NCBI GenBank assembly: GCA_964390905.1
Contig: CAYMLO010000010.1
Coordinates: 18,186 to 82,185 of the forward strand
DNA from: an uncultured Planctomycetales bacterium
GTDB taxonomy: Bacteria > Planctomycetota > Phycisphaerae > UBA1845 > JAFGLZ01
Length of the DNA stretch: 64,000 bases
Direction of reading: 5' to 3'
Part shown: positions 7,846 through 52,992 of the stretch, one piece after another
Position numbering within the stretch: position 1 is the stretch's first letter
How the letters are laid out: each line of letters begins with the position of its first letter
The notes under the pieces: generated by a model
What the model was told of the DNA's origin: nothing
Database searches by the model: none
What the model saw: only the letters and a program-made list of their open reading frames with translations
Made by a program: the position numbers and the translations under genes

Positions 7846-7865
7846 AGGACGAAGGAGCAAAACAG

Positions 7866-7919
7866 GTAGGGTGGGTCGTTTCGACCCACCTGTCGGCGGG
7901 TCCGGAGGACCCACCCTAC
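7866..7919. repeat. 54-bp double-hairpin palindromic element, copy 1
   Basis: gtagggtgggtcgtttcgacccacctgtcggcgggtccggaggacccaccctac. Differs at a single position from the copy at 8517-8570. Confidence 0.9.
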
Positions 7920-8002
7920 TGTCTCGATGGATCCAATGCCCGGGGCAGGCAACGAGAGTGACTGAGTTGCAGCGTGCGCCCACATGAGGCGGAGGCCGCC
8001 CC

Positions 8003-8428: not shown

Positions 8429-8455
8429 TCGGCGGATTGCGGGGCAGGTACACCC

Positions 8456-9568: not shown

Positions 9569-9702
9569 GGTTGGCCGGACCGGGGACGACGGGGTGCCCT
9601 ATCGCCTCAGCGGTGGGAAACGAAAGCTAGGGGGGAATTGATGTCCCCCGCCGCTGAAGCGACGGGGCACCCGCCGGGACAACGTATTCCGGTCGGTCGT
9701 CA

Positions 9703-9888
9703 GCCGGCTTCCAGCCGGCGCCACCGTTAGCCACGGGCTTCAGTCCGTGGGGATCGTGCGCGCCACAGTTCCTCCCCCCTCCCCCCAGCCGGCTTGAGCC
9801 GGCTGGGGGGAGGGGGGAGGAGGGGTTTGGGCTCGCCTGCGCACGGGCTGAAGCCCGTGCCTAACGGTGGCGCCGGCTGAAGGCCGGC
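9703..9888. repeat. ~190-bp foldback element: ~47-bp imperfect inverted arms around a perfect 50-bp palindrome
   Basis: Left arm gccggcttccagccggcgccaccgttagccacgggcttcagtccgtg. The right arm reverse-complements to gccggccttcagccggcgccaccgttaggcacgggcttcagcccgtg. Centre (9771-9820): cctcccccctccccccagccggcttgagccggctggggggaggggggagg. Confidence 0.85.
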
Positions 9889-10043
9889 AGAGGCAGTGTC
9901 TACCTCGACGAAGCCGGGACCGGGCGGCCGAGACTGCACCCCACACGACCACGAGGAATCGAAGCGGACTGACCGAGCGCGGCACAAGCCACTGAGCGAC
10001 AAGATACCCCAAAGCAAAACAGCGCTTCTGCGCTCAGGCTCCG

Positions 10044-24943: not shown

Positions 24944-25078
24944 GACGCGTCACCCGTTGCGGCGGATCATACTCGCAACGAAGGAACGATGGAACCACGA
25001 TGCCAAGAGCGATTCAAACGGCGGGCCAGCCGCTCAACCACGGTCCAGAAGACCAGGTGAAGGCCGTCCGTGTCGATA

Positions 25079-25957
25079 TCAGAAGCGTGGACGGTCCAGA
25101 TCCAGGACGCCCTTCTTCGAGTCTTTGGCTGCGCGGAACGCGATGACGCCGTCCTTGGCGTCCAGGGGCCAGCCCTTCGGGTCACCGCCGAACACGCCGT
25201 CCGCATTCTCGTAGATCAGATCCTTGTGCGGATAGGGTCGCTTCCTGGGGAACGCCTTGCGCGGAAGGCCACAGGCAGCCGTGTGCTCGAACGCGACGTG
25301 ACCGTCCAGGAACAGAACGCACTGCCCCTCGCCGTGATGATGGGCGCTATTGTAGGCCTTCCACCGCTCCGCTCCCCATTTGTTGAAGTCCTTGTCCTTC
25401 CCGGCCCGGCCTGCAGCACCCACGGGCCCTACGGACGTGAAGCACTTGTCGGCGATGACGGGCATGCCCGGATCAAGGGCCTCGCGCGGCTTGGCCGCCG
25501 ACGGGCCATAGGGATGCTGATACCCGTAGCTCAGATTCTTGGCAGACATGAAATCGTGGAACGGCATCGGGTTGGCCGTCGAGTCCACCTTGTCGGTGCA
25601 GCCCCTACCCGGACAAACGAACATCCGGAACGTCGTGCTGCCCATCCTGACGAGGAGGAAGAGGGACTGGCCGATGCTGGGGTCGGCGTGCGCGAGATCG
25701 CCGTGTTGTCGGTGCATTCCGATCGCCGATAGGCCCTCAAACTTAGTCTTGTGATGGGGGGCGACCGGCCACCAATCGCAAAAGTCGTTCGCGTAGATCT
25801 TGCAGGCCATCCCAAGGTCGCGGAGGTTCTTGGCACAGGCCGCCCGCCGGCTCACGCCCCCATTTGCGCTCGCGGCGGCAAGCGCCAATCCGATCAGGAG
25901 CAGCACGGCAACGATGACAACGCCCACGTCAACCAGCGTGAATCCTCGCCGATTCAT
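25079..25957 (-). CDS. DUF1559 protein with prepilin-type N-terminal cleavage/methylation motif (H-X9-DG family)
   Basis: N-terminus MNRRGFTLVDVGVVIVAVLLLIGLALAA. C-terminal HHGEGQCVLFLDGHV fits H-X9-DG. The family is abundant in Planctomycetota. Confidence 0.8.
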   Translation of the reverse strand: MNRRGFTLVDVGVVIVAVLLLIGLALAAASANGGVSRRAACAKNLRDLGMACKIYANDFCDWWPVAPHHKTKFEGLSAIGMHRQHGDLAHADPSIGQSLFLLVRMGSTTFRMFVCPGRGCTDKVDSTANPMPFHDFMSAKNLSYGYQHPYGPSAAKPREALDPGMPVIADKCFTSVGPVGAAGRAGKDKDFNKWGAERWKAYNSAHHHGEGQCVLFLDGHVAFEHTAACGLPRKAFPRKRPYPHKDLIYENADGVFGGDPKGWPLDAKDGVIAFRAAKDSKKGVLDLDRPRF

Positions 25958-25993
25958 GACAGATCCTCCGATCCGCCCCCCCCGGGCCGCCGT

Positions 25994-26569
25994 CTACGAA
26001 GCCAGTTTCCGGCCGAACGCTTCGGCCCGTTCCCTCAGCTTCGCGTCCTTGCGAATGCCCTCGACATCCTTGACGCCCGCGGCCACGAACGCGCCGAGCC
26101 ATTCGTTCTTGCTGAACTCGGCCATCCGTCGGCAGGTTTCCGCGGCCAGATCGGCCCCGTCCTTCTCGTCGCCGCCGGCGGTGATGACGGCGGCCATCTT
26201 GCGGCCCGCGATCAGGCAACGGACCTCGGTCTCGCTTTCGAACTTGAACAGACAATAGAACCGGTCGAGGGCCATCTTGAGATACCACGTCACCGACCAG
26301 CAAAAGACCGGCGTCGCAAAGACGATGACGTCGGCCTCGAGGACCTTGGCCAGGACTTCCTGCATTTCGTCTTCAACCACGCACCCCGGTGCGTCCGGGG
26401 TCTGTTGGCAGGCGAAGCACTCGATGCACCCGGCCAGCTCCTGGTACTCCGAGAGCTGAATCACCTCGGTCGTGGCGCCCGCCTCGGCGGCGGCCGCTAA
26501 GATGATATCGAGGACGGCCTGCGTGTTGCCCTCGGGTCGCGGACTGCCCTGGATGGTCAGGATCTTCAT
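25994..26569 (-). CDS. Flavodoxin-like FMN reductase / iron-sulfur flavoprotein family
   Basis: MKILTIQGSPRPEGNT..., Cys cluster CIECFACQ, VFATPVFCWSV. Start moved to ATG 26569 with GGAGGA upstream. Confidence 0.7.
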   Translation of the reverse strand: MKILTIQGSPRPEGNTQAVLDIILAAAAEAGATTEVIQLSEYQELAGCIECFACQQTPDAPGCVVEDEMQEVLAKVLEADVIVFATPVFCWSVTWYLKMALDRFYCLFKFESETEVRCLIAGRKMAAVITAGGDEKDGADLAAETCRRMAEFSKNEWLGAFVAAGVKDVEGIRKDAKLRERAEAFGRKLAS

Positions 26570-26714
26570 GGCATGTTCCTCCACGGTGCTGGCGTGCCCA
26601 ATGCCAGCACGCACCGGCCATTCTAGCGCAGCCATGCGGGCCTGTACACACACCCGGCGACGATCGACCGGCCGACGTGCCAGCCGACGCCGACAGAAGT
26701 ACAATGCCCCCGCC

Positions 26715-27566
26715 ATGAGCCCGAAAGAGGTCACGTTGGACATGTCTGGCGGCTACCAGGCCTTCTCCCGGCTGTGGCTGCCGGACCACCCGACCTCAGC
26801 CGTGCTCTACATCCACGGGATCCAGTCGCATGGCAAGTGGTTCGAGCGATCGGCCGAGCAGCTGGCCTCCGCCGGCTGCGCCGTCATGCTGCCCGACCGC
26901 CGCGGCAGTGGACGCAACCGCACCGATCGCGGCCACGCCGAATCCCCCCGGCAGCTGGTGGACGACCTGATCGTGGCCCTCACCGCCCTCGGCGGACGAA
27001 CCGGGCAGCGCAGCGTGACCGTGGTGGCCGTCAGTTGGGGCGGCAAGCTGGCTCTGGCGCTCGCCCGACGCGTCCCCGACCGACTCCGGCGGCTCGTGCT
27101 GGTTGCCCCCGGGCTGTTCCCACAGGTCGACCTCTCGCCGGCCGAGAAGGGGTCCATCGCGTGGTCGGCCGTCCTCCGGCCTAAGCGGCTGTTCGACGTG
27201 CCCCTGGACGACCCGGAGCTGTTCACCGCCACGGAACGGTGGATCGACTTCATTCGCCACGATCCGCTCTCCGTTCGCCGGGTCACGGCGCGGTTCCTGC
27301 TGACGTCACGTCGACTGGACTGGGAGGTCCGGGCGTACGGTCGCCGGCCGCCGCCCGTGCCCCTCCGCGTCTTCCTGGCCGGGCGGGACCGCATCATCGA
27401 CAACGAACGGACCCGCCGCTTCGTCCGCGACCTGCCCCTGTCCGACCGGGCCATCATCGAGCACCCGGACGCCCACCACACCCTGGAATTCGAGCCCGAT
27501 CCGGCCCCGTACTCCCGGGATCTGGTCGCAGCGGTCCTGGCCCGGAATGGGGCGGCCCCCCCTTGA
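26715..27566 (+). CDS. Alpha/beta hydrolase (lysophospholipase / monoacylglycerol-lipase-like)
   Basis: LYIHGIQSHGKWF, nucleophile-elbow-like AVSWGG, C-terminal HPDAHHTLEFE. Start uncertain; the upstream part of ORF 26472.. overlaps the divergent gene. Confidence 0.6.
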   Translation: MSPKEVTLDMSGGYQAFSRLWLPDHPTSAVLYIHGIQSHGKWFERSAEQLASAGCAVMLPDRRGSGRNRTDRGHAESPRQLVDDLIVALTALGGRTGQRSVTVVAVSWGGKLALALARRVPDRLRRLVLVAPGLFPQVDLSPAEKGSIAWSAVLRPKRLFDVPLDDPELFTATERWIDFIRHDPLSVRRVTARFLLTSRRLDWEVRAYGRRPPPVPLRVFLAGRDRIIDNERTRRFVRDLPLSDRAIIEHPDAHHTLEFEPDPAPYSRDLVAAVLARNGAAPP

Positions 27567-27690
27567 GGATTCTGGTCGCAAGCGGACGGGCTCGCCGGCG
27601 CGACCCGCACAGCGGAACACGAAATACTGTATTCGTCCTGGCGGCAGACACGATATGTGGTAGCATATTGCCGGAGGAGGTCCAAGCCCC

Positions 27691-28797
27691 ATGGCACGCA
27701 CGACCCAGGCAACGAAGGCGAAGGCTCGCACCGCGACCGACGGGATTTCGCTCGACACGGTGATCCAAGGCGACTGCCTCAAGGTGCTCAGCAGCGTTGA
27801 CGAACCCTTCGCGGATCTGGTCTTCGCGGATCCGCCCTTCAACATCGGCTACACCTACGACGAGTATTGCGACAACGTCGAGTATGAGCAATACGGGAAC
27901 TGGACCCGGCAGTGGATGACGACGTGCGTCGAGGTGCTCAAGCCCACGGGGTCGTTCTACGTCGCCATCGGGGACAACTTCGCCGCGGAGGCCCGTCTGA
28001 TCGGTCGAGATCTCGGCCTGACGCTCCGCAATTGGATCATCTGGCACTACACCTTCGGCCAAAGCACCAAGGCGATGTTCGCCAAGTCCCACACCCACAT
28101 CCTGTACTTCGTGCGGGATGCGACGAATTGCACGTTCAATGACGAGCACTTACGGTTCCCGTCCGCCCGGCACACCGAGTACAGCGACCGCCGGGCCAAT
28201 CCGATGGGACGGGTCCCCGACGACGTCTGGAACGAGTTCCCGCGCGTCTGTGGGACGTTCGCCGAACGGGCGGGCTGGCATGGCTGCCAGATGCCCGAGT
28301 CTCTGCTGATGCGGATCATCCGGGCGTCCAGCAACCCGGGCCAGGTCGTCCTCGATCCCTTCGTGGGCAGTGGGACGACGGTGGTCGCGGCCGCCAAGCT
28401 CGGGCGGCGCTACCTGGGCATCGACATCTCCAAGAAGTACATCGCCCAGTGCCGCAAGCGCCTCGCGACCGCCGAGGCCGACGCCACCGAGACCTACCGC
28501 GGGAACGGATTCGCCTGGCCTAACCTTCATGTCGAGACGTTGGGACAGCTCTATCGCGAGACGGGGACCAGCTACCACCGTCTGGTGCCCAATCGCGTCG
28601 CCATGGAATGCTTCGTGCGGCTGCTGAACGTCCGTTTGGGCACGCCCTACGACGTCGAGGAGGTCGGCGGACTGCTGACGTGGTTGGGCGATCGGAACAA
28701 GCTGCCCAAGCTCCGCAACGATCGGCCCTACCGGGAGCGGAAGCGATCGACACGGTCCGCTGAGCGTTGCGACCGGAGCCGAACCCCGGCCAGGTGA
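27691..28797 (+). CDS. Beta-class amino DNA methyltransferase (N6-adenine or N4-cytosine) with ~100-aa basic C-terminal extension; no adjacent restriction gene
   Basis: Motif IV ADPPFN precedes motif I DPFVGSGTT, the beta-class order (PF01555-like). The neighbouring genes are a hydrolase and a response regulator. Confidence 0.8.
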   Translation: MARTTQATKAKARTATDGISLDTVIQGDCLKVLSSVDEPFADLVFADPPFNIGYTYDEYCDNVEYEQYGNWTRQWMTTCVEVLKPTGSFYVAIGDNFAAEARLIGRDLGLTLRNWIIWHYTFGQSTKAMFAKSHTHILYFVRDATNCTFNDEHLRFPSARHTEYSDRRANPMGRVPDDVWNEFPRVCGTFAERAGWHGCQMPESLLMRIIRASSNPGQVVLDPFVGSGTTVVAAAKLGRRYLGIDISKKYIAQCRKRLATAEADATETYRGNGFAWPNLHVETLGQLYRETGTSYHRLVPNRVAMECFVRLLNVRLGTPYDVEEVGGLLTWLGDRNKLPKLRNDRPYRERKRSTRSAERCDRSRTPAR

Positions 28798-28844
28798 GAA
28801 CAAGGGCTTTCCCTTCCTACCGAAAGAGAGTGGGGGGTTCCGCG

Positions 28845-29390
28845 CTATCCGTACGACTCGCGCTGGTCGACGAATTTCTCGGCCAGGCGTCGATAGGCGC
28901 CGACCAGATCGCGACAGACCAGATCGATCCGCTGCCTGAGCACGCGGCGCTCGCGGATGATGCGGCTGCTGACCCGTCTGAGACGGTCATAACGAAGCCG
29001 TTCCCGATTCCGTTCACGGTGAACGGTGACGGCCTCGTCCAGCGACCTGCCGAGGCGGCTGAGGTCGAAGGGTTTGGCCAGCATGTCGCGGACGCCCAGA
29101 CGCATGGCCCCCAGGGCTCGGCCCAAGGTGGGCTGGCCGGTCATGAGGATGACCTCGCAGTCGGCGTCCCGGCGGAGTTCCCGGGCCAATTCGAGGTCGT
29201 CGCTGTCGGGAAGATCCACGTCGGCCAGCACGACGTCAGGTTTCTCGGCCATGCTGCTACAGATGGCGTCCGAGGCGGTGGTCACGCGCTGGACGCGTGC
29301 CTTGACGGTCCGCTCGATGTAGTCGGCCAGCATCCCGGCCATCTCATCGTCGTCTTCGACCAGCAGGATGTTGGTGACTGGGTGCGACAT
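28845..29390 (-). CDS. Response regulator: receiver domain plus short Arg-rich helical tail
   Basis: ILLVEDDDEM...VVLADVDLPDSDD...KPFD receiver motifs. Start taken at ATG 29390. Confidence 0.75.
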   Translation of the reverse strand: MSHPVTNILLVEDDDEMAGMLADYIERTVKARVQRVTTASDAICSSMAEKPDVVLADVDLPDSDDLELARELRRDADCEVILMTGQPTLGRALGAMRLGVRDMLAKPFDLSRLGRSLDEAVTVHRERNRERLRYDRLRRVSSRIIRERRVLRQRIDLVCRDLVGAYRRLAEKFVDQRESYG

Positions 29391-29569
29391 GGTGTCGCGT
29401 CCTCTAGACAAGGTCCCACCGGCCTGAGCCCGACGTCCCGGGCGCTCGCCGAGAACCATCTCGAGAATAAGGGCAGGCGGACGCAGGGCCGCGAGAGCGA
29501 GGGAGGAGGGAGAAGGCCTCCACGCCCGCCTGGCCCGGAAACCCGGTTTTGGGTGCTACCTCGCCTAAC

Positions 29570-41814: not shown

Positions 41815-41966
41815 GATTCAACCCCGCTGACGTTTCAGCCAGTGACACGTTCGCCGCGCGGACCGGCCGTTGCCACCGATCGGGCGGTATGATACCAACT
41901 CAGCGCGGGGTGGCACAGGTGCGGCCGATCGAGCTGCCCAACTGTCGAGACCTGGCGAGGTGCGTG

Positions 41967-42350
41967 ATGAAGCACAAGACGCTGGTGCGGATCCTGCTCA
42001 AGATCCTGGGCGTGTTTCTCTTCACCGAGGCGCTGAATAGTCTAATCAGTTCAGGGCTCTGGCTACTGAACGACCTGATGGATCCGACCTCAGCGACGAG
42101 CACGCTGTGGTATTTCCGCTTGAGCGGCCTGATCCAAGGCCTGCTCAAGACGTTCCTGGCTATCTACCTGTTCTTCGGCGGGACGTGGGTGGTCAACAAG
42201 ATCATCCCCAGCAACCGCCCGTACTGCCCGGAATGCGGATACGAGCTGACCGGCCTGGTCCGAAACCGATGCCCCGAATGCGGCACGCCGCTGTCCGAGG
42301 ACCTACTCGCCTCGTCCCGAAGCGCTGGCGGCGCCGACGGGGCGTGCTGA
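41967..42350 (+). CDS. Small membrane protein: one 2-TM module plus a C-terminal CxxC...CxxC zinc ribbon
   Basis: MKHKTLVRILLKILGVFLFTEAL...LLKTFLAIYLFFGGTWVVNKII, then CPECGYELTGLVRNRCPECG. No family recognised. Confidence 0.6.
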   Translation: MKHKTLVRILLKILGVFLFTEALNSLISSGLWLLNDLMDPTSATSTLWYFRLSGLIQGLLKTFLAIYLFFGGTWVVNKIIPSNRPYCPECGYELTGLVRNRCPECGTPLSEDLLASSRSAGGADGAC

Positions 42351-42430: not shown

Positions 42431-44038
42431 ATGCACCCCAAGACGACAGCACGACTTGGCCTCAAGCTGATCGGCGTGTTCCTCCTGATCCACGGGTCCC
42501 TGGCCTTCCTCGACCGCTTCCAGCCGATCTTGCTCAGCTTGACCTTCGGCGCGACGGGGCGTGCCGATCAGTTGCTGGCAAGGCTCCCCTATCCAGTGCT
42601 CACGCTGCTCTTGACGGTCCCTGTTGGGATCTACCTGGTTCTGGGCGGCGCGTGGCTCGCATCCCGGATCGTCCCGGACAACAAACCGCGTTGTCCCGAG
42701 TGTGGCTATCAGCTCGCGGGGTTGGACGCCGAGCGGTGCCCCGAATGCGCCACGCGCCTGCCACAAACGAGCGGCCCGCTCCGAGCGCAAGATGCGAGCG
42801 TCTCGCCCAAGCCGGTGGTGCGCGTGCTTGTCAGGTTGCTGGGCGTCGCCATCATCGTGCTCAAGCTCGACGAGTTGACCTGGGAGGCCACCTTCTTCGC
42901 GTCCGATCTCCTCGGGTTCGGCCAGTATGACCGGCCGTGGGCTCGGCCGGCGGAGCTCTCCGACTTCCTGACGATCGGGCTGGGTCTGTACCTGCTGCTC
43001 GGCGGCGGCTGGGTCGCGGATCATCTGTTGTTGTGGGCACGGCCTCGAGGCCCGGACCGCCAGAACAAGGCGGACATCACCGGGCGCGGACCCCACGGCA
43101 GCCGAGGGATGGTGTTCGCATTCGTCAGGCTGCTGGGCTTGATCTTCCTCGTGTTGGGTGGGCGAGGACTGCTGGCGCTTGTGTCCTGGCTCATGCAAGA
43201 CTACCTCCAGTTCGGATACGAGCGTGGATGGGTGCCCTACGCCGGCAGGGGCTTGGCGGAGGCGTTGAAGCTGGTGGTCGGGGGGTACTTCTTCTTCCGC
43301 GGGCGATGGGTCACCGACAGGCTGCTCGGATCGGATCGGCCAGACACAGCCAAGCGCAGCGTCGTCCAGGCCGGGGAAGATACTGCGCTCGGTCGGGCGG
43401 TGGTGATGCTGCTCGGCATCACGTGTCTCGTGCTGGCGATGGCGCAGCTGTGTTGGACCGGGCCGTGCTTGCTTTACTGCTATCTCATGTGGGGGTCGGA
43501 CAGCTACAACTTCCCACACGAAGCGGTCAAGACGGTGGTCTTCTGCTTGCAGGCCGGCGTGGGGATCGCCCTCTTGCTCGGAGCGGATCGGGTGCTGCGC
43601 AGGTTGACGCATGGTGGGTTCCACTCGGTCGGTGAAGCAAAGGCCTCGACCCACGAGGAGCTGCAGCGCGATTGGCCTGTGCCAGTCCAACGAAACAGGG
43701 CTTGGGTCTCTCTGCTGCTGGGCATCCTTGGGGTGTACCTCTGCATTGTCGGAACGGCCGAACTGCTTCAGGCAATCGGTTGGGTGGTCCATACCGTCCT
43801 CGAACCGGGGTGGTTCAGTCTTCAGGACCAACTCGCCGTTGCGACGCCGCACTTCCTTCGGGTGGCCATTGGCGTGTGGCTGCTCTGGGCCCACCGGCGC
43901 CTGGCCCAATGGATCGTCCCGCCACACCGGGCCTACTGCCCCGCCTGTGGCTATGAATCGAAGGCCGATGCCGGCCCGAACTGTCAGGAATGCGACGCGC
44001 CCCTCGACGCCGTGGCCAAACCGGCGCCGGTCTCCTAG
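42431..44038 (+). CDS. Membrane protein built from five copies of the same 2-TM module; the first and last modules carry zinc ribbons
   Basis: Five recurrences of (basic)-hydrophobic-LLG-hydrophobic helix ... G.YL.LGG.W-type helix. Zinc ribbons: CPECGYQLAGLDAERCPECA (module 1) and CPACGYESKADAGPNCQECD (module 5). Paralogous to the 41967 gene. Confidence 0.6.
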   Translation: MHPKTTARLGLKLIGVFLLIHGSLAFLDRFQPILLSLTFGATGRADQLLARLPYPVLTLLLTVPVGIYLVLGGAWLASRIVPDNKPRCPECGYQLAGLDAERCPECATRLPQTSGPLRAQDASVSPKPVVRVLVRLLGVAIIVLKLDELTWEATFFASDLLGFGQYDRPWARPAELSDFLTIGLGLYLLLGGGWVADHLLLWARPRGPDRQNKADITGRGPHGSRGMVFAFVRLLGLIFLVLGGRGLLALVSWLMQDYLQFGYERGWVPYAGRGLAEALKLVVGGYFFFRGRWVTDRLLGSDRPDTAKRSVVQAGEDTALGRAVVMLLGITCLVLAMAQLCWTGPCLLYCYLMWGSDSYNFPHEAVKTVVFCLQAGVGIALLLGADRVLRRLTHGGFHSVGEAKASTHEELQRDWPVPVQRNRAWVSLLLGILGVYLCIVGTAELLQAIGWVVHTVLEPGWFSLQDQLAVATPHFLRVAIGVWLLWAHRRLAQWIVPPHRAYCPACGYESKADAGPNCQECDAPLDAVAKPAPVS

Positions 44039-44069
44039 AATAGTCCTCTGCGGGCGAAGTCAGCTTGAG

Positions 44070-45296
44070 ATGATCGATATCAGCGTCCTCTACTGCGGGT
44101 TCGAGTCCCCCTCCACGCCGCACCGGTACGGCCGGGCGATCAGGCGGGATGTGCCCGGGCATCAGCGGATGGCGGTGGCCACCTCCGCGATGGACCGCCG
44201 GCCGATCGTCGTGTGGAACATCACGCAGACCTGCAACCTCAAGTGCGTCCACTGCTACAGCGACAGCGAGGCAAAGGCCTATGAAGGCGAGCTGACCGGT
44301 GAGGAAGTCCGCCGCGTGCTTGACGACCTGGCAGCGTACAAGGTGCCGGCCGTGTTGTTCTCCGGCGGCGAGCCGCTGATCCGCCCGGACCTGTTCGAGC
44401 TGATCGCGTACGCCCGAGATCTGGGCCTGCACGTCGTCATCAGCACGAACGGCACGCTGATTACGCCGGACATCGCCAAGCGGTTGGTCGACCTGAAGCT
44501 GGCGTACGTGGGCATCTCGTTGGACAGCGCCACGCCGGAGGTGCACGACAAGTTCCGCGGCGTACCCGGCGCGTTCGAGCGGACGATGCGGGGGTTCCGA
44601 AACTGCGTCGAGGCCGGTCAGAAGGTGGGGCTTCGGCTGACGTTGTCGCGGCCCACCTTCGAGAACCTCGACGGCGTGTTCGACTTCATCGAGCGCGAGC
44701 GGATCAACCGGGCGTGCTTCTACCACCTCGTGCCGACCGGACGGGGCAAGGGCGTGCTGGATCTGACACTGGCCGAATCCCGCCAGGCCATGGATACGAT
44801 TCTGCGTCGCACACGCGGGTTCCACGATCGCGGGCTCGGCATCGAGATCCTGACCGTGGACAACCACTGCGACGGGCCCTATATGTACCTCAAGATGAAG
44901 GCCGACGGCGATCCGCGGGCCCAGGACGTCGGCGAGATGCTCGGTTGGAACGGCGGCGGGCTGTACAGTTCCGGCGTGGGGATCGGCTGCATCGACTTCC
45001 ACGGCGACGTGCATCCCGATCAGTTCTGGATGCACACGTCGTTGGGCAGCGTTCGGCAGCGCCCGTTCAGCGAGATCTGGCAGGACACGTCGAACGACCT
45101 GATGGCGGGACTGAAGGACCGTCGTCCCCGGCTGAAGGGACGCTGCGGTGCATGTGAGTTCCAGCCTCTGTGCGGGGGTGCGTTGCGGGTCCGGGCGGAG
45201 CTGATGACGGGCGACCCGTGGGCGGCGGACCCGGCGTGCTATCTGACCGACGAGGAGATTGGCCTGACGTCGGGGGACAACCAGGCCTCACCCTAG
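44070..45296 (+). CDS. Radical SAM / SPASM-domain enzyme, NirJ/AhbC/AhbD-like
   Basis: RPIVVWNITQTCNLKCVHCY (CxxxCxxC). GGEPL. C-terminal Cys-rich auxiliary-cluster region GRCGACEFQPLCGGALRVRAELMTGDPWAADPACY. Start taken at ATG 44070. Confidence 0.8.
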   Translation: MIDISVLYCGFESPSTPHRYGRAIRRDVPGHQRMAVATSAMDRRPIVVWNITQTCNLKCVHCYSDSEAKAYEGELTGEEVRRVLDDLAAYKVPAVLFSGGEPLIRPDLFELIAYARDLGLHVVISTNGTLITPDIAKRLVDLKLAYVGISLDSATPEVHDKFRGVPGAFERTMRGFRNCVEAGQKVGLRLTLSRPTFENLDGVFDFIERERINRACFYHLVPTGRGKGVLDLTLAESRQAMDTILRRTRGFHDRGLGIEILTVDNHCDGPYMYLKMKADGDPRAQDVGEMLGWNGGGLYSSGVGIGCIDFHGDVHPDQFWMHTSLGSVRQRPFSEIWQDTSNDLMAGLKDRRPRLKGRCGACEFQPLCGGALRVRAELMTGDPWAADPACYLTDEEIGLTSGDNQASP

Positions 45297-45311
45297 AACG
45301 GGGGAGAGACG

Positions 45312-46553
45312 ATGTCCGATGATTCGATGGAACGGCCGAAGCTGAGATCGTCGATCGACGTGGCGCCGGTCGAGCAGGACGGGCGACAGATGCTGGTCCT
45401 GTACGACGCGGCCGGCCTGGCCGCCGGCAACCTGGGGCTGACCCAGGGAGCGTTCGCGATCGTCACGCTCATGAACGGGCAGAATACGCTGAACGACATC
45501 CTGGCCATCTTCGCCCAGCAGTTCAGACAAGAGCTGCCCAGCGAGAGACTGGTAGAACTACTGCACCAACTCGACCGCAACGGGATGCTGGAGGGGCCGA
45601 GGTTCGAGGCCCGCTTCGAGCAACTGGCGGAGTCCTACCGCAAAGCCGACGTCCGACCGTCGCAAGCCATGTCGGCCGACGTGAAGCCGGATCAACTGCG
45701 GGACAACCTGCGCGCGATAATCGATGAGGGTCAGCCCTCGACGGACGGCCAGCGCGTGGTGGGACTGATCGCGCCGCACCTGGACTACGAACGGGGCCGG
45801 CCCTGTTACGCCGAAGCCTACGCTCAGCTCCGCGACCGCGACGACGTCGACCGCTTCGTGATCCTGGGAACGAACCACTTCGGTCGATCGGAGACGGCGG
45901 TGTGGACGATCAAAGACTACGACACGCCGCTTGGCCGGGCCGAGACCGACCGGGAGTTCATCGACAGGTTGCGCGAGCGGTGCGGCGCTGACCTGGGCGT
46001 GCAGGAGCTGGACCACGCTCGCGAGCATTCGGTGGAGTTACAGGTCATCTTGCTCAAGGCACTGCTCGGATCGCGTCCGGTGAAGATCGTGCCGGTGCTG
46101 TGTCCCGACGCGTGCGGGCCTGGAGGCCTGAGGCCCGCGAGCGGAACCGGGCCCGGTCTGGACGACGTGGCGGCGGCGCTGGCGGACGTGGTGACAGAGA
46201 CACCGGGCCACACATGCGTCATCGCGGCGGCCGACCTGAGTCACGTCGGCAGGCGATTCGGCGACGACCGCGACCTAGACGATGCGTTTCTCCAGGACGT
46301 TCAGGCCGAGGACCGGGCGCTCCTGGACCTGCTGGAAGCCGGCGACGCCGACGAGTTGGTCTCCCGGCTTCGAGATAGGGAGAACCCCTATCGCGTTTGC
46401 AGTGCGGGGGGGCTCTACGTCCTGCTGCGAGCGGTGCGGGGCTGCACGGTCCGGGTGCTGCGCTACCATCAGGCGGTCAATCGCGAAGAGCACACGGGCG
46501 TGACCTGTGCGGCCGCGGTCATGACGCCGGGTAACGCGGCTCAGGAGGGGTAA
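45312..46553 (+). CDS. Memo-like (AmmeMemoRadiSam protein B family) with ~120-aa N-terminal extension resembling a PqqD/RRE peptide-binding domain
   Basis: Memo-type motifs VVGLIAPHLDYERG, FVILGTNHFG, AADLSHVG. The N-terminal ...VLYDAAGL...LTQGAFAIVTLMNGQNTLNDILAIFAQQF...LVELLHQLDRNGMLEG fits the PqqD-like pattern by eye. Confidence 0.65.
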   Translation: MSDDSMERPKLRSSIDVAPVEQDGRQMLVLYDAAGLAAGNLGLTQGAFAIVTLMNGQNTLNDILAIFAQQFRQELPSERLVELLHQLDRNGMLEGPRFEARFEQLAESYRKADVRPSQAMSADVKPDQLRDNLRAIIDEGQPSTDGQRVVGLIAPHLDYERGRPCYAEAYAQLRDRDDVDRFVILGTNHFGRSETAVWTIKDYDTPLGRAETDREFIDRLRERCGADLGVQELDHAREHSVELQVILLKALLGSRPVKIVPVLCPDACGPGGLRPASGTGPGLDDVAAALADVVTETPGHTCVIAAADLSHVGRRFGDDRDLDDAFLQDVQAEDRALLDLLEAGDADELVSRLRDRENPYRVCSAGGLYVLLRAVRGCTVRVLRYHQAVNREEHTGVTCAAAVMTPGNAAQEG

Positions 46554-46559
46554 CGGCTC

Positions 46560-47135
46560 GTGGGCGAAGCGGAAGATCACGTTCGAATCGTGCTGCCGCG
46601 GCGATGCCTGGTCGTCCTGTCGGGGATCCCGGCCAGCGGCAAGTCGACGTTCGCCCACCGACACTTCCGACCGACCGAGGTGGTCAGCTCCGATTGGTGC
46701 CGGGCGACGATCTGCGACGACGCCATCAACCAGGCGGCCAGTCGCGACGCCTTTGACCTCATGCACGACATCATCGCCAAGCGGATGAAGTTCAACCGGC
46801 TCTGTGTGGCCGACGCCACGCATCTGACGCACGCGTCGCGCAAGCGGCTCATCGATCTGTCCGGACGCTATGGCTATCCCGCCTGTCTGATCGTGTTTGA
46901 CGTAGCAGCCGACGAGTGCAAACGGCGCGACGCGCGGCGCCCGGATTTCCGGGTCGGTGAGGACGTCATCGACGACCACGCCAGCCGGCTCGCGGTTGAC
47001 GTCGACCGGCTCGGCGCGGAGGGGTTCTTTGGGGTCTGGGTCCTCGGCACAGACCAGGTCGACCAGGTAGAGGTAGTCTTCGAGACGCACGCGGCGGAGA
47101 AGGAGCGGCCGGACCGACGGGCCATCGAGCCATGA
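46560..47135 (+). CDS. Stand-alone P-loop kinase resembling the polynucleotide 5'-kinase domain of Pnkp (AAA_33-type)
   Basis: LVVLSGIPASGKSTFAHRHFRPTEVVSSDWCR...DAFDLMHDIIAKRM...CVADATHL pattern. GTG start with AGGAGGGG upstream. Stop overlaps the lpxK start (ATGA). Confidence 0.65.
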   Translation: MGEAEDHVRIVLPRRCLVVLSGIPASGKSTFAHRHFRPTEVVSSDWCRATICDDAINQAASRDAFDLMHDIIAKRMKFNRLCVADATHLTHASRKRLIDLSGRYGYPACLIVFDVAADECKRRDARRPDFRVGEDVIDDHASRLAVDVDRLGAEGFFGVWVLGTDQVDQVEVVFETHAAEKERPDRRAIEP

Positions 47136-48295
47136 CGCCGGACGCCTACTACCATCGGCTGATCAGCGGCCGGCAGCGCGGGCCGGTCGCCTCGCTGCTG
47201 CGTGGCGGCCTGACGCTGCTGTCCTGGCCGTACGGCGCGGTCGTGGGCATCCGAAACGCCTACTACGACCGCACGGATCGCGGGGTTCGGCGCGCGTCGG
47301 CGCCGGTCATCAGCGTGGGCAACCTGGTGGCGGGCGGGACGGGCAAGACGCCGATGGTGATCTGGATCCTGCAACGTCTCGCCGAGCTGGGACGTCGCCC
47401 GGCCGTGCTGATGCGCGGATACGGCGCCGGGGCGAGGGGATGTTGCCAGGCCAACCAGGCGCTTCAGGACGCGATCCACGGCTGCGAGAACGACGAGGCC
47501 CGCGAGATCCGACGTCGCTGCCCACGTGCGGATCTTCTGATCGATCCCGACCGCGTGGCCGGTGCGGACAAGGCCGCTGCGATGGGATGCGATGTCCTGG
47601 TGATGGACGACGGATTCCAGCACCGGCGGTTGGGGCGCGACCTCGACATCGTCCTGATCGACGCGACGGACCCGTTCAGCGCCGGGTTGCTGCCGCGGGG
47701 AATGCGCCGTGAGCCGGTCGGCTCGCTCGTTCGCGCCGGCGTGGTCGTCGTCACACGGGCCGATCAGGCAACCGGCGAAGTCCTGCAAACGCTGCGGCAG
47801 CAGGTGACCAGATTGGCGCCGGACGCACCGGTCCTCGCCGCACGTCATCGCCCGATCGAGCTGTGCGACCAGTCCGGCCGATGCGACGCCGACATGCGCG
47901 TCGACGCGATGGCCGGCCGCCGCGCCTGGGTGTTCGCCGGCCTGGGGAATCCGACGGCCTTCATCGCGACGGTCGAGGGGATGGGGTTCGAAGTCACCGG
48001 CCGACAGTTCTATCCCGATCACCACACGTGCTCCGACGCCGAGCTGGACGAGATGGCGAGCCAGGTGGCGCAGGCCGGCGCGGACGTCGTGTTGACCACC
48101 GAGAAGGACGCGGTCAAGCTACCGCCGGATCGTCCCGACTGGCCCGCGCCGCTGCGCGTCGTCCGCGTCGGGATCGAGTTCCTCGGCGGCGACGCCGAGA
48201 CCATGAGCCGGCTGATCGACCGGGCGGTCAGCGCCGATGGCGCCCCGATCGACCGCAAGGACGTGCCCGATGACCAAGCCCTATCAACCGATTGA
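47132..48295 (+). CDS. lpxK: Tetraacyldisaccharide 4'-kinase LpxK
   Basis: VISVGNLVAGGTGKTPMV P-loop, DDGFQH motif, and overall length typical of LpxK. Confidence 0.85.
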   Translation: MTPDAYYHRLISGRQRGPVASLLRGGLTLLSWPYGAVVGIRNAYYDRTDRGVRRASAPVISVGNLVAGGTGKTPMVIWILQRLAELGRRPAVLMRGYGAGARGCCQANQALQDAIHGCENDEAREIRRRCPRADLLIDPDRVAGADKAAAMGCDVLVMDDGFQHRRLGRDLDIVLIDATDPFSAGLLPRGMRREPVGSLVRAGVVVVTRADQATGEVLQTLRQQVTRLAPDAPVLAARHRPIELCDQSGRCDADMRVDAMAGRRAWVFAGLGNPTAFIATVEGMGFEVTGRQFYPDHHTCSDAELDEMASQVAQAGADVVLTTEKDAVKLPPDRPDWPAPLRVVRVGIEFLGGDAETMSRLIDRAVSADGAPIDRKDVPDDQALSTD

Positions 48296-49232
48296 CGCAT
48301 CGAAGCTGACGACGTTCTCGATCGGTCGCCGTCGACACAAGGTCGCGCTGGACGCGATGGCGAAACTGCCGCCGCCGGGCGTATCGGTCGGTGAATGGCT
48401 CGATTCACTGCCGTCGGTGCTGGGTGCGGCCGAGTTCCGCGCGGTGGTCGATGCCGTCGTTGCGGCCCGTCAGGCGGATCGCCCCGTGGTGTTCGCGATG
48501 GGGGCGCACGTCGTCAAGGTGGGCTGCGGACCTATCGTGGTGGACCTGATCCGCCGCGGCGTGGTGACGGCCGTGGTCGGCAACGGCGCGACGGCCATCC
48601 ACGACGTCGAGCTGGCCTGCACGGGCCAAACGAGTGAGGACGTAGCTGACGCCCTCCACGACGGCCGGTTCGGCATGGTCCAGGAGACGGCCGACTTCTT
48701 TGCCGAGGCCGCCGCGCGGGGTGCCCGCGACAGCGTCGGACTGGGCGCGGCCGCGGGCCAGTTGCTGTTCGAGCAGGACCCTCCCCACATCGACGTCAGC
48801 ATCCTGGCCGCCGCCCATCAGGCCCGCATCCCCGCGACGGTCCACGTCGCCGTCGGCACCGACACGGTGCACATGCATCCCCAGGTCGACGGCGCGATGC
48901 TGGGCCAGGCCAGCATGACCGATTTCCGGTTGATCTGCAGCGTCGTGGCCGACCTCGGCGCGACCGGCCCGGGCGGCGCGGGCGGCGTGTGGTGCAACAT
49001 CGGCTCGGCCGTCCTGCTGCCGGAGGTGTTCCTGAAGACCGTGGCGGTCGCCCGCAACCTCGGTGCGGATCTGGACGCGATGGTGACCGCCAACTTCGAC
49101 ATGCTGGGCCAGTACCGCGCACGCCAGAACGTCGTGCACCGCCCGCCGCAGCCGGGCAAGGGCCACGAGATCATCGGTCAGCACGAGATCCTCTTGCCGC
49201 TGTTGCGTCAGGCCATTATCGAACGCACTTGA
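48270..49232 (+). CDS. Conserved protein, possibly deoxyhypusine-synthase-like fold (function uncertain)
   Basis: GAHVVKVGCGPIVVDLIRRGVVTAVVGNGATAIHDVELACTGQTSEDV loosely recalls the DHS-like NAD-binding family. The ATG 48270 start overlaps the end of lpxK. Confidence 0.35.
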   Translation: MTKPYQPIDASKLTTFSIGRRRHKVALDAMAKLPPPGVSVGEWLDSLPSVLGAAEFRAVVDAVVAARQADRPVVFAMGAHVVKVGCGPIVVDLIRRGVVTAVVGNGATAIHDVELACTGQTSEDVADALHDGRFGMVQETADFFAEAAARGARDSVGLGAAAGQLLFEQDPPHIDVSILAAAHQARIPATVHVAVGTDTVHMHPQVDGAMLGQASMTDFRLICSVVADLGATGPGGAGGVWCNIGSAVLLPEVFLKTVAVARNLGADLDAMVTANFDMLGQYRARQNVVHRPPQPGKGHEIIGQHEILLPLLRQAIIERT

Positions 49233-49345: not shown

Positions 49346-50923
49346 ATGCGCGGTGGCGTGATGATCGGTCGAGACGCAATGGGATTGCTGACGGACCTGG
49401 TCGGCCCGTTCCGACCCAGGACCGTGTCACTCGTCGGCGCCGGACCGGGCGATCCGACCCTAGTATCCATTCGCGGTGCCGTTCGGATCACCCAGGCGGA
49501 CGCGATCCTGTACGACCGGCTGGCCAGTCCGACGCTGCTGCGGCTGGCCCGGCCTGACGCGGTGCTGATCTCGGTCGGCAAGACACCGACGCGGCATGCC
49601 GTGCCGCAGGACCAGATCCAGCGCATGCTGATCGAGCACGCCCGATCAGGCCAACGCGTGGTGCGGCTCAAAGGCGGGGACCCGTTCGTGTTCGGGCGCG
49701 GGGGCGAGGAGGGCGAGGCCCTCGCCGAGGCGGGGATCGCGTTCGAGGTCGTCCCGGGCATCACGGCCGCCATCGCTGCGCCCGCCTACGCGGGCATCCC
49801 CGTAACGCATCGCGATTGGACGTCGACGTTCGCGCTGGTCACCGGCCACGAAGACCCGACCAAGCCCGAGTCGAGCATCGACTTCGCCGCCCTGGCGCGG
49901 ATCGGGACGGTGGCGTTCTACATGGGGGTCAAACAACTGGCCGCCAACTGCCGCAAGCTCGTCGAAGCCGGCCTGGACCCCGAGACCCCCGCCGCCCTGA
50001 TCCGATGGGGAACGCGGCCGGACCAGCGGACGCTGACGGGCACGGTCTCGTCGCTGCCCGCGCAGGCCGAGGCCGCCCAGATCCGCCCGCCCGCCATGAC
50101 CCTCATCGGGCGAGTCGTGGGCCTGCGAGCTCGGCTGAACTGGTTCGAGGCCCGACCGTTGTTCGGCCAGCGAATCGTCGTGACGCGGACCCGACAGCAG
50201 GCGTCCGAGCTGGCGGGTCGGCTGGGGGACCTGGGCGCGGACGTCATCGAAGCCCCGACAATCCGGATCGCGCCGCCCGATGACTTCGACGCGATCGACC
50301 AGGCGCTCCGGCGGATCGAGCAGGTGGACTGGCTGATCCTGACCAGCGTCAACGGCGTGGACGCGATGGTCGACAGGCTACGCGCGTGCGGCCTGGACGC
50401 CCGTGCGCTGGCAGGATGCCGGATTGCGGCGATCGGACCGGCCACCGCCGACCGGTTGCGACAATGGTTCATCGAGCCCGAGCTCGTCCCAGATCGATTC
50501 GTGGCCGAGGCCCTGGCCGAGAGCATCCTGAAACTCGGCGACGTTCGGGGCAAGCGCTTCCTGCTGCTGCGGGCCGACATCGCGCGTCCCGCCCTGCGTG
50601 AAGCGCTTGCCGAGGCCGGTGCGGTCTGCGACGACCTGGCGATCTACCGCACGGAACCCGCCGACGCCCTGCCCGATGACGTGACCGCCGGCCTGGCGGA
50701 CGGCGCCATCGACTGGATCACGTTCACCAGCAGCTCGACGTTCACGAACTTCCTGGATCTGCTGGATGAGGCGGGGCGGACCGCGCTGCGCGACGTCCGC
50801 CTGGCCAGCATCGGCCCGATCACTTCGCAGGCCATTCGCGCCGCCGGCTACGAACCGGCCGTCGAGGCCACCCCCCATACGATTGATGGACTCACAGAAG
50901 CCATCCTCGCCGCGGTCTCGTGA
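49346..50923 (+). CDS. cobA: Uroporphyrinogen-III C-methyltransferase fused to uroporphyrinogen-III synthase (CobA-HemD)
   Basis: VSLVGAGPGDPTLVSIRG...ILYDRL...RLKGGDPFVFGRGGEE (SUMT domain), then a HemD-like half (IVVTR...LILTSVNGV...ITFTSSST). Start could be ATG 49346, 49361 or 49379. Confidence 0.85.
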   Translation: MRGGVMIGRDAMGLLTDLVGPFRPRTVSLVGAGPGDPTLVSIRGAVRITQADAILYDRLASPTLLRLARPDAVLISVGKTPTRHAVPQDQIQRMLIEHARSGQRVVRLKGGDPFVFGRGGEEGEALAEAGIAFEVVPGITAAIAAPAYAGIPVTHRDWTSTFALVTGHEDPTKPESSIDFAALARIGTVAFYMGVKQLAANCRKLVEAGLDPETPAALIRWGTRPDQRTLTGTVSSLPAQAEAAQIRPPAMTLIGRVVGLRARLNWFEARPLFGQRIVVTRTRQQASELAGRLGDLGADVIEAPTIRIAPPDDFDAIDQALRRIEQVDWLILTSVNGVDAMVDRLRACGLDARALAGCRIAAIGPATADRLRQWFIEPELVPDRFVAEALAESILKLGDVRGKRFLLLRADIARPALREALAEAGAVCDDLAIYRTEPADALPDDVTAGLADGAIDWITFTSSSTFTNFLDLLDEAGRTALRDVRLASIGPITSQAIRAAGYEPAVEATPHTIDGLTEAILAAVS

Positions 50924-50981: not shown

Positions 50982-52754
50982 CTACAGCTCCGATTCGGGC
51001 CGAGCCGTCTCGGTCGGTCCGGGAGCGACCTGGCCGACTTCGTCGGTCCGCATCGCGAACGTCGCGTCGATGGTCTTGTCGGCGCACAGATCGTGCAGGA
51101 CCTCGACGACCTGTGCGTAAGACAGGCCCAGTCCCTGGCGCTTATCCTCAGGGACATCCGGGGGGCGTCTGCCCAGCGTCAGGACCAGGCAGGCCACGTC
51201 GGTTGGACAGGGAATCGGCGGACTCATTCGTCCCGAGATCGGCGTCTGCCGCACGAGCTTCAGCTTCTCGGCACCAGCATCGGCGGCGAGGGTCACCGCG
51301 CCGTTGCGGTGCACGTAGAAGGCGGGGGTCTGACAACGCATGCCCGACCCGAACAGCGCGATGCGTTGCTGTCCCGAGCGCTGGGCGGCCACCAGAAAGC
51401 CGCCTCGAGAGGGAACCAGATCCAGCAGGAAGCCGCCCTTCCCACCCACCTTGAGCGTCTGGATTGAGCTGTCCTCCTGTTCCAGCAGCGCCTCGTAGGC
51501 CAGCTGGCGGATCCGCTCATCGTCCGCGTCCAGGAGCGGCCGGAGGGCCAGGATCGCCTGCCCGGTCCTCTCCGTCCGTCCCAGCTCTTCGATCGCCAAC
51601 TCACGGAAGGGGCTTTCGGCGTTGTTGGCGTGTCGGGTCACCACACTTAGGGCCAGATCGTCCCCCAACCGAAGGCCCGTGCGGCCGGCAAAGTAGCTCA
51701 CCCCGGGCTCCTTGTGCGTGTACAGCTTCCGAATCGACGGCAGGGCCGTCTTGCCCAGGCCCTCCCAGGCCAGGGAGATGTCGGCAAGGGCGGCCTCAGG
51801 CTGGACGGCCTCCTCACACAGCTCCCGGAGTCGCAGATCAGCGAACGACGGGCTGGCCGGCACGTACAGGTGCACCAGCAGTTGCAGAAAATGCGCCTCT
51901 TGACCTTGCCACGCCTCCGGTATACGCAGGTCCACCGAGTGCGCGTCCGGTGCGTCGGCCGTCTTGCGCGGCTCGACCCCGAAACGACGGTTGATCAGCC
52001 GCATCAGCCGACTGGCAATGGCCGCCGACGGATTGGTCAACACGAGCCGGATTCGGCGGGCCTCGGTCGCACGCCCACCGCCGATCACGCGTCCCACCCG
52101 AGGGTCGGCCTTGGTCGCGGCGTCCTTCTTCAGGCCAAACGGATTGATGAAAACCTGGCCCATCCCCTCGCCGAGGATCCGCCCCTCGACGGGTTGGCCG
52201 TTTGCCCACAGCTTCAAGCTGCATGGCATCAACCAGCCGTTCTCGAGCGAGCTGACGTCGGTCCCCGACAACGCGCGAACGGTCAGATCGAACGTCGCGC
52301 CCACCTGAGCGGCCGCGGGGATCTCGCCATACACGGTCACCACGGCCGTCTCTTCGCTGTCGAGCAGCCTCTCTGGACTGTAGCGCTTCAGCGCCTTGTA
52401 GGCCTGACCCAGGCGATACCGCCGACGCATGTCGTCCAGCATGTACTCGCGAATCGGACGCGGACACTGGCTCGACCCGGTCTTGGCCAGCCCGACCACC
52501 AGACCGTACCCGCCGACCGACATCCGCCGAAGCCCCTCTACCCAGGCCACCGTCTTGATCGTGTCCCGGACGCCTGCGGATTCCTCCCGCGGGTCCTTCT
52601 CATCAAGAACGTTCTCGGCCTCGGCGGACTTGTCGTCCTGTTTGGCGAACCAGGTCGTCTGGCCGTCCGCGCTACAGCCGACCGCGTAAACCGCAAGTGC
52701 AAAGGTGACTGAAGCCAGTGCGGCTGCTAAGCACAGCCTTCGCATGGCAGGCAT
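50982..52754 (-). CDS. FlgI (flagellar P-ring)-like lipoprotein with a HEAT-like insertion
   Basis: Lipobox-like AVYAVGCS. FlgI-like blocks: GGYGLVVGLAKTGSS, ETAVVTVYGEIPAAAQVGATFDLTVRALSGTDVSSLENGWLM, GRVIGGGRATE, IRLVLTNPSAAIASRLMRLIN. Start ATG 52754 with GGAGGA upstream. Confidence 0.55.
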   Translation of the reverse strand: MPAMRRLCLAAALASVTFALAVYAVGCSADGQTTWFAKQDDKSAEAENVLDEKDPREESAGVRDTIKTVAWVEGLRRMSVGGYGLVVGLAKTGSSQCPRPIREYMLDDMRRRYRLGQAYKALKRYSPERLLDSEETAVVTVYGEIPAAAQVGATFDLTVRALSGTDVSSLENGWLMPCSLKLWANGQPVEGRILGEGMGQVFINPFGLKKDAATKADPRVGRVIGGGRATEARRIRLVLTNPSAAIASRLMRLINRRFGVEPRKTADAPDAHSVDLRIPEAWQGQEAHFLQLLVHLYVPASPSFADLRLRELCEEAVQPEAALADISLAWEGLGKTALPSIRKLYTHKEPGVSYFAGRTGLRLGDDLALSVVTRHANNAESPFRELAIEELGRTERTGQAILALRPLLDADDERIRQLAYEALLEQEDSSIQTLKVGGKGGFLLDLVPSRGGFLVAAQRSGQQRIALFGSGMRCQTPAFYVHRNGAVTLAADAGAEKLKLVRQTPISGRMSPPIPCPTDVACLVLTLGRRPPDVPEDKRQGLGLSYAQVVEVLHDLCADKTIDATFAMRTDEVGQVAPGPTETARPESEL

Positions 52755-52992
52755 GGTCTGGTCCTCCCTGACCCGTCTCGCCACCGAGCCGTCGCGCACC
52801 GCGCCCTGGCGGCGAGCTCCTGCATCACCAACGAGAGCACCCCCGCTCGCTCCCGGGCGGATCCTCGGATCTGCCCGTCCCGGACAGACGACTCCATACT
52901 ACTAGATCGGCAAATCCGGCCAAATTCAGCATTATCGGACGTCGCGTTGGCTGTCGATCTCGGAGAAAAACGATTGGCCAACCTAGAATAGG

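Follow-up and report, generated by a model that had tools for sequence, protein, structure and literature searches.

A putative AhbC, a PqqD-fused Memo protein and a stand-alone Pnkp-type kinase encoded upstream of lpxK in a member of the Phycisphaerae

The locus analysed here lies on contig CAYMLO010000010.1 of an uncultured Planctomycetales bacterium (GCA_964390905.1), within a stretch of 64 kb (66% GC) that was taken as a whole and is referred to below as the window. Three consecutive genes stand in front of lpxK in it and encode a radical S-adenosylmethionine (SAM) enzyme, a Memo protein with an N-terminal extension (hereafter the long Memo) and a small P-loop kinase (Table 1). A first-pass annotation of this DNA had proposed that the three make up a maturation cassette, and had listed three results that would speak against this. 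Two of them were found in our analysis, and the cassette reading fails because the trio is not co-conserved outside a narrow clade and because orthologues of the radical SAM enzyme lie in ahbAB/ahbD-type clusters. In our opinion the three genes are probably not a dedicated cassette; rather, a putative AhbC, a PqqD-fused Memo and a kinase with separate histories appear to have met in front of an lpxK/lipopolysaccharide (LPS)-core operon in one small clade of Phycisphaerae.

The three open reading frames (ORFs), both spacers, the ATGA overlap with lpxK and all the motifs quoted in the first-pass annotation were present in the sequence and its translations. As read from the sequence, the TAG of the ahbC-type gene is followed after 15 nt (aacgggggagagacg) by the ATG of the long Memo gene, whose TAA is separated by 6 nt (cggctc) from the GTG of the kinase gene; the kinase stop overlaps the lpxK start (ccATGAcg, −4 nt). 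The GC content at third codon positions is 0.83–0.84 in all three ORFs, which is the coding signature of the window. The gene run from ahbC to the GSU2086-family gene was scanned for terminator-like sites, and none was found. Three promoter-like matches occurred in the region against 0.9 expected; these are consensus matches only and do not show function. In the window's clade, ahbC, the long Memo gene, the kinase gene and the lpxK/LPS-core genes are probably co-transcribed.

Table 1. Coordinates of the features at the locus, numbered within the window.
Feature	Position	Strand	Remarks
ahbC-type radical SAM/SPASM enzyme	44070..45296	+	408 aa; Radical_SAM 1e-30
Long Memo, whole ORF	45312..46553	+	413 aa
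PqqD/RRE-like winged-helix domain of long Memo (predicted)	45312..45677	+	residues 1-122: three strands, three helices, linker helix
Memo (LigB-superfamily) catalytic domain of long Memo	45684..46553	+	residues 125-413; Pfam Memo 1e-37
Stand-alone Pnkp-type P-loop kinase (predicted)	46560..47135	+	191 aa, GTG start; AAA_33 2e-24
lpxK (tetraacyldisaccharide 4'-kinase)	47132..48295	+	Pfam LpxK 3e-76; TIGR00682 180 bits vs cutoff 92
GSU2086-family protein (deoxyhypusine-synthase-like fold)	48237..49232	+	NF052581 364 bits vs cutoff 250
cobA-hemD fusion (uroporphyrinogen-III C-methyltransferase / uroporphyrinogen-III synthase)	49346..50923	+	TP_methylase 3e-49, HEM4 1e-63
Weak sigma-70-like promoter match	44013..44041	+	just upstream of ahbC

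The radical SAM enzyme had been described as similar to NirJ, AhbC and AhbD, and the NCBIfam ranking agrees with this description: AhbC scored 501.7 bits, NirJ1 480.7, NirJ 369.6, AhbD 235, MftC 154 and PqqE 95. The AhbC model (390 positions) and the NirJ1 model both aligned over the full length. The cluster motif CNLKCVHCY (CX3CX2C) contains Cys55, Cys59 and Cys62, and the Cys-rich tail, GRCGACEFQPLCGG...DPACY, contains Cys359, Cys362, Cys368 and Cys390; an additional Cys307 is located in the C-terminal region. The SPASM domain was matched at 19.9 bits, which is sub-threshold relative to the Pfam cutoff of 21.5.

With a radical derived from SAM, AhbC cleaves both acetate side chains off 12,18-didecarboxysirohaem, and the product is Fe-coproporphyrin III. 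Orthologues of the window enzyme, 68–89% identical, were found across Phycisphaerae and Nitrospirota, and JGI often names them Fe-coproporphyrin III synthase. Two of them (loci L081 and L085; 68–71% identity) adjoin a fused AhbA+AhbB sirohaem decarboxylase, which passes both cutoffs (NF040708, 242 vs 140; NF040707, 235 vs 125). L081 also contains a TIGR04053 radical SAM/SPASM gene (464 bits vs cutoff 395; 349 bits with the AhbD model) and URO-D genes, and L085 also contains Ccm and multihaem cytochrome genes. Because its orthologues adjoin fused AhbA/AhbB and an AhbD-like radical SAM protein, which fits the cobA-hemD gene nearby, the window enzyme is more likely the AhbC of the sirohaem-dependent haem pathway, an activity predicted from homology and gene context. 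The evidence thus favours the haem- or sirohaem-related role that the first-pass annotation had offered as its alternative. The enzyme would then convert 12,18-didecarboxysirohaem to Fe-coproporphyrin III, and the cobA-hemD fusion, 2 kb downstream of lpxK, would feed its pathway by supplying precorrin-2 for sirohaem. The cobA-hemD fusion was also found downstream in L002.

With the AhbC (TIGR04546) and Firmicutes NirJ1 (TIGR04054) families the protein shares full-length collinearity, the CX3CX2C motif and the Cys-rich, SPASM-like tail, and like AhbC it has orthologues in clusters that contain ahbA/ahbB and an ahbD-like gene; a gene of the sirohaem branch, cobA-hemD, is also close to it. Unlike a typical ahbC, however, the window gene is detached from ahbAB/ahbD and sits 5' of a Memo gene. 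Other orthologues are solitary or lie 3' of a cytochrome oxidase operon, and many unrelated positions are seen, so the AhbC gene moves around. It is also the most conserved gene of the region, with 80–89% identity to L001–L003 versus 58–66% for the Memo and 63–71% for lpxK, which argues against neofunctionalisation.

Several points weigh against the assignment as AhbC. The score of 501.7 bits is below the 650-bit AhbC equivalog cutoff, the NirJ1 score almost equals it, and the protein in fact scores below all NCBIfam equivalog cutoffs. Moreover, within about 84 kb, made up of the window (searched with tblastn) and the 10 kb on either side of it, neither ahbA/B nor an ahbD-type gene was found. 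These points, together with the NirJ score, would suit a haem d1 enzyme of the NirJ type, or a new peptide maturase of the SPASM kind that only looks like AhbC. However, the three AhbC orthologues tested (from Phycisphaerae, other Planctomycetota and Nitrospirota, two of them beside ahbAB) scored 480–535 bits against the 650-bit cutoffs of TIGR04546 and TIGR04054, and those in ahb clusters reached 480–529 bits with the AhbC model, a range that includes the score of the window protein. As orthologues in ahb clusters score alike, the sub-threshold score is a property of the lineage and not a sign of a different function. No nirS/nirF/nirN-type genes were present in the four annotated orthologue loci, the decarboxylases beside the orthologues pass the cutoffs for AhbA and AhbB, and the second radical SAM protein there is AhbD-like. 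Housekeeping enzymes typically show conservation of this degree (68–89% across Phycisphaerae and Nitrospirota). An identity other than AhbC is very improbable. The NirJ/haem d1 identity was rejected on the ranking of the profile models and the orthologue context, and that of a maturase of ribosomally synthesised and post-translationally modified peptides (RiPPs) was rejected on model scores of only 95–155 bits and the ahb context of the orthologues. Since the orthologues tested from Phycisphaerae and Nitrospirota fall short of the equivalog cutoff for AhbC, automated annotation calls them only 'radical SAM protein'; we suggest that the window enzyme should be annotated as AhbC and that the lead of a maturation system can be dropped.

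In the second ORF, the Memo motifs APHLDYERG, ILGTNHFG and AADLSHVG were all found. TIGR04336 (AmmeMemoRadiSam protein B) matched residues 125–387 at 104.6 bits (cutoff 26), and the full-length AlphaFold2 model, with a mean predicted local distance difference test score (pLDDT) of 94, had human MEMO1 (7kq8) as its best PDB match (target-normalised template modelling score, TMt, 0.81). Six residues, H156, H189, H239, D308, H311 and C363, are invariant in 32 long-Memo homologues; from what is known of MEMO1 we take them to be metal ligands, and we infer that the Memo domain carries out metal catalysis. The long Memo is like AmmeMemoRadiSam protein B and MEMO1 (7kq8, 3bcz) in the Memo fold, in the APH..., TNH... 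and EHS motifs and in D308/H311/C363. Unlike them, it has an extra N-terminal domain of about 120 aa that is missing from the 270-position model and from MEMO1, and the Memo profile covers only residues 125–392 of the 413-aa protein.

The hardest call of the first-pass annotation was that this extension resembles PqqD or a RiPP recognition element (RRE), and here Pfam, the profile search against PDB and the structural search of the model agree with it. A full-length Foldseek search was dominated by the Memo domain, and the N-terminal domain was modelled and searched separately. Its model (pLDDT 92) had as top PDB match TbiB1 (5v1u), the RRE of a lasso-peptide system (prob 1.0, TMt 0.67), and further matches were ThcOx, MibB, MadB, TglHI and SkfB. 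When a profile of the domain was compared with PDB sequences, the top matches were PaaA (N-terminal region), PqqD (3g2b) and PqqCD, and profile positions 6–92 aligned with PqqD residues 10–93, almost the whole domain. Pfam PqqD matched 17 out of 32 members of the family at E≤1, the best at 6.5e-6, and a precomputed PF05402 match exists for one homologue (P0015). On the other side, the PqqD scores of the window protein itself are weak (Pfam 13.4 bits, E 0.098, gathering threshold 23.4 bits; Foldseek E 0.03). The individual E-values for the domain are likewise weak (0.03–0.1) but mutually consistent. The whole family conserves these N-terminal residues, about 120 in number, and P9, R12, D32, G56, L87, L93 and R115 are invariant across the 32 homologues. 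Taken from sequence profiles and a structural model, this evidence supports a PqqD/RRE-like winged helix, and we infer that it binds peptide. The domain is like PqqD and RREs (PF05402; TbiB1 5v1u, PqqD 3g2b, PaaA 5ff5) in its winged-helix topology of three strands and three helices and in its N-terminal P-x-L-R and DG..t...I motifs. It is unlike them in being fused to Memo, where those are stand-alone or fused to radical SAM enzymes, cyclodehydratases or proteases, and in having neither an adjacent precursor peptide nor co-conserved RiPP enzymes.

The absence of a convincing precursor ORF had been noted before, and this was found again on a wider scale: in 67 loci, the 2.5 kb around the long Memo contain no conserved family of ORFs of 15–90 aa. 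The largest small-ORF cluster, and the only one in several loci, was the antisense shadow of lpxK. In the window, the gaps (31, 15 and 6 nt) are too short for a precursor ORF. Of the usual marks of a RiPP cluster, a recognition domain is thus present by fold, PDB-profile and Pfam evidence, its binding being predicted, and co-conserved tailoring enzymes were not found, the radical SAM gene occurring beside the long Memo in 3 of 70 loci and the kinase gene in 2 of 71.

More than 120 full-length homologues of the long Memo were found in the databases searched, with 42–68% identity; Phycisphaerae and other Planctomycetota account for nearly all of them, and one comes from Acidobacteriota. A search with the N-terminal domain profile gave at least 1,241 representative clusters at E≤1e-10 (50% identity, among 1.84 billion representatives). 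The best 150 matches belonged to the same family, save P0474, a protein of 986 aa. Neither Pfam nor NCBIfam holds a curated model for the long form of Memo, public records label it only 'AmmeMemoRadiSam system protein B', and the mentions of AmmeMemoRadiSam found in the literature were incidental. The PqqD-fused Memo family is therefore a large, widespread and undescribed architecture, with more than 1,000 sequence clusters that await a curated model, and it is the part of the first proposal that remains new. P0474 itself has a PqqD-like domain at residues 2–113 followed by about 870 residues that look like helical repeats, and has no Memo domain and no Pfam or NCBIfam match in the remainder; it is either a fusion of another kind or a chimera that arose in assembly.

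The third ORF had been described as similar to the kinase domain of Pnkp, and our search gave the same result. The protein matched positions 3–175 of the 851-position TIGR04075 at 2e-46 (158 bits vs cutoff 750) and gave a 168-residue alignment (E 6e-36) with the kinase domain of Clostridium thermocellum Pnkp (4gp6), in which the P-loop (GIPASGKST with GSSGSGKST) and the SSDxCR motif (SSDWCR with SSDFCR) are in register. It is thus like bacterial Pnkp (4gp6/4gp7/4mde) in the P-loop GxxxSGKST and SSDxCR motifs of the kinase domain. It is unlike bacterial Pnkp, a protein of about 850 aa, in having no metallophosphoesterase or ligase-like domain and no adjacent Hen1, its flanks being Memo and lpxK. 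Close homologues (64–87% identity) represent the window's clade, and homologues of 40–53% identity were found in many phyla. One that is 49% identical lies directly 5' of lpxK, GSU2086-like and HAD genes with no Memo gene (L091), another lies behind nucleoside-salvage genes (L095) and another among unrelated genes (L090). Judged by its sequence, the 191-aa protein is a predicted stand-alone, context-variable kinase of the Pnkp type, which would have a history separate from that of its neighbours, with relatives in several unrelated contexts.

Gene order was then compared in a sample of 80 species-level loci encoding a long Memo, onto which the window proteins were mapped. In 3 of 70 loci the gene next to the long Memo on its upstream side encodes an AhbC orthologue, and in 2 of 71 the next gene downstream encodes the kinase; all of these loci fall in the window's sequence cluster. 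In contrast, lpxK lies directly downstream of the long Memo in 42 of the 71 loci, mostly with gaps of 8–150 nt, and this adjacency spans at least 8 of the 14 long-Memo clusters at 50% identity. The GSU2086-family gene was found within 3.5 kb downstream in 29 of 63 loci, and further downstream are an HAD (GmhB-like) gene, a GT9 heptosyltransferase gene and a Kdo/WaaP kinase gene. Co-conservation of the trio is thus confined to the window's clade, and with these counts the conserved partner of the long Memo is the lpxK/LPS-core run, not the radical SAM gene or the kinase gene. Among the Phycisphaerae loci in which lpxK is followed by the GSU2086-family gene, an HAD phosphatase, GT9 and a Kdo/WaaP kinase are L007, L011, L022, L044, L052 and others, and the HAD (GmhB-like) phosphatase of this run carries a C-terminal membrane segment. 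In Geobacter, GSU2086 is located between hldE and gmhA (PMC5585712).

The conserved linkage raises the question of whether the long Memo is itself part of cell-envelope or LPS biogenesis, as the first gene of an operon of lpxK, the GSU2086-family gene, a gmhB-like gene, a heptosyltransferase gene and WaaP. It would then modify an envelope-biogenesis protein or a lipid-linked intermediate, and AhbC and the kinase would be incidental insertions. The spread of lpxK adjacency over divergent Memo clusters fits this, and so does the free variation on the upstream side, where SecDF, RNase H, Tad genes, HflX, LysA, topoisomerase VI, MurJ and FlhF were seen. In loci that lack lpxK, the long Memo is flanked by GT9/WaaP genes or by large membrane proteins and an LPG_synthase_TM protein, and one such flanking gene overlaps it by 4 nt. 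The kinase homologue of L091 in front of lpxK is another point in its favour. However, nearly all loci are from Phycisphaerae, so that common descent of the gene order can account for much of the signal; the sole Acidobacteriota locus (L026) has no LPS genes nearby, and about 40% of loci have no adjacent lpxK. In addition, we know of no Memo-family protein that acts in LPS synthesis. An envelope role for the long Memo is accordingly an unlikely explanation, though one to be taken seriously, and the lpxK linkage points to a phenotype to look at. Neither Pfam nor the PDB sequences gave a match for the large membrane proteins, which might be ArnT-like, that are encoded 5' of the long Memo in one clade (c9, c16).

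Within the window's clade the three genes might nevertheless act together, as a clade-restricted form of the cassette of the first-pass annotation, with AhbC (or a derivative), the PqqD-fused Memo and the kinase working on one substrate and the PqqD-like domain docking the SPASM enzyme. The tight spacing of 15 nt, 6 nt and −4 nt, apparently found on several contigs of the clade, resembles that of translational coupling and weighs against separate roles, and there may be functional coupling of the three genes specific to this clade. The window shares the adjacency of AhbC and the long Memo with L001, L002 and L003 and the kinase with L001 and L004, and on further contigs of the clade two or three of the genes seem to occur. 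SPASM radical SAM enzymes are known to partner with PqqD-type domains, and PqqD docks to PqqE. In L015, an AhbD-like SPASM radical SAM gene (TIGR04053) was found 1.3 kb from the long Memo. On the other hand, an AhbC orthologue adjoins the long Memo in none of 67 loci outside the clade, L002 and L003 have no kinase, no precursor ORF was found, and AhbC orthologues occupy many unrelated positions. AhbC is also under the strongest purifying selection of the region and is about 70% identical to orthologues in genuine ahb clusters. We consider such a clade-specific module improbable, though less so than the non-AhbC identity discussed above. The reading preferred here remains the meeting of three genes with separate histories; in it, the RRE-like domain would bind a segment of a peptide or protein that is encoded elsewhere and present it to the metal site of the Memo domain, whose His/His/Asp/His/Cys residues are intact.

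The described AmmeMemoRadiSam system suggests where a partner of the long Memo might be sought. In L041 and L053, a TIGR04337 radical SAM gene (272 bits vs cutoff 220) lies 0.7–2 kb upstream of the long Memo on the same strand, the order in L041 being the radical SAM gene, rnhA, long Memo and lpxK. In L026 (Acidobacteriota MAG131, 7563–10138), the gene of a 309-aa, activase-like radical SAM protein with only weak NrdG/TIGR04337 similarity overlaps the long Memo gene by 4 nt. These cases are few, and they point to a PflA-like AmmeMemoRadiSam enzyme, not AhbC, as the radical SAM partner of the long Memo where one is visible. In the window, tblastn found no TIGR04337-type gene, and the adjacent radical SAM gene is of the AhbC type. 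Haem-related genes were seen near the two TIGR04337/long-Memo pairs, namely a di-haem cytochrome c peroxidase gene (L041:6149–9191) and a gene for an HbpS-like haem-degrading protein (L053:4791–9209). In L026, the pair of radical SAM gene and long Memo is preceded by genes for two large proteins (609 and 716 aa) that matched nothing in Pfam or NCBIfam.

Three observations weigh against the preferred reading. No AMMECR1 was found in any locus scanned, that is, among 27 ORFs of the window (23597–29459 and 32010–62843, the rest of the window and genome being outside the search) and the neighbours in L041, L053 and L026. The second is the TIGR04053 gene of L015 mentioned above. The third is a Nitrospirota locus (L083, JACPZO010000119.1, 2821–6596) with an AhbC orthologue 1.4 kb upstream of a TIGR04337 radical SAM gene (358 bits). 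The proximities in L015 and L083 may leave a small opening for a link between Memo and haem; chance alone could explain them. The two radical SAM genes of L083 are separated by three small ORFs, of which one is NMD3-like, and are flanked by cytochrome c and cytochrome P460 genes. The long Memo further differs from AmmeMemoRadiSam in its usual neighbour, which is lpxK and not the A and radical SAM components.

A more far-reaching view would combine these hints: the PqqD/RRE-fused Memo would be a metalloenzyme directed at a peptide or protein, acting in trans with a TIGR04337-type radical SAM enzyme, and its operon link to lpxK and the LPS-core genes would reflect a real role in outer-membrane biogenesis in Phycisphaerae. 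We regard this combination as improbable. In a weaker variant, the long Memo may be coupled to AhbC in the window's clade for a haem-related modification. To our knowledge, the biochemical substrate of Memo proteins is still unknown, and a fused recognition domain of a type that normally binds peptides offers an experimental handle on it. If true, a long Memo directed at peptides or proteins would be the first clue to what Memo and AmmeMemoRadiSam systems act on.

Some details of the surrounding genes were also recorded. The GSU2086-family ORF overlaps the end of lpxK (48237–48295) by 59 nt when read from its first ATG and by 26 nt from an alternative ATG at 48270, and its true start is uncertain because the family model aligns only from residue 18. 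The start codon of the cobA-hemD fusion is likewise uncertain (49346, 49361 or 49379). Upstream of ahbC, on the same strand, are two paralogous membrane proteins (41889–42350 and 42431–44038) with C-terminal CPECGY...CPEC zinc-ribbon motifs; the longer one (42431–44038) has apparently repeated modules and ribbons at both ends, and a similar pair is found 5' of ahbC in L001. On the opposite strand, 50982–52799 encodes a protein of 605 aa in which a FlgI (flagellar P-ring) domain is followed by a HEAT-repeat region, an architecture that is unusual for FlgI.

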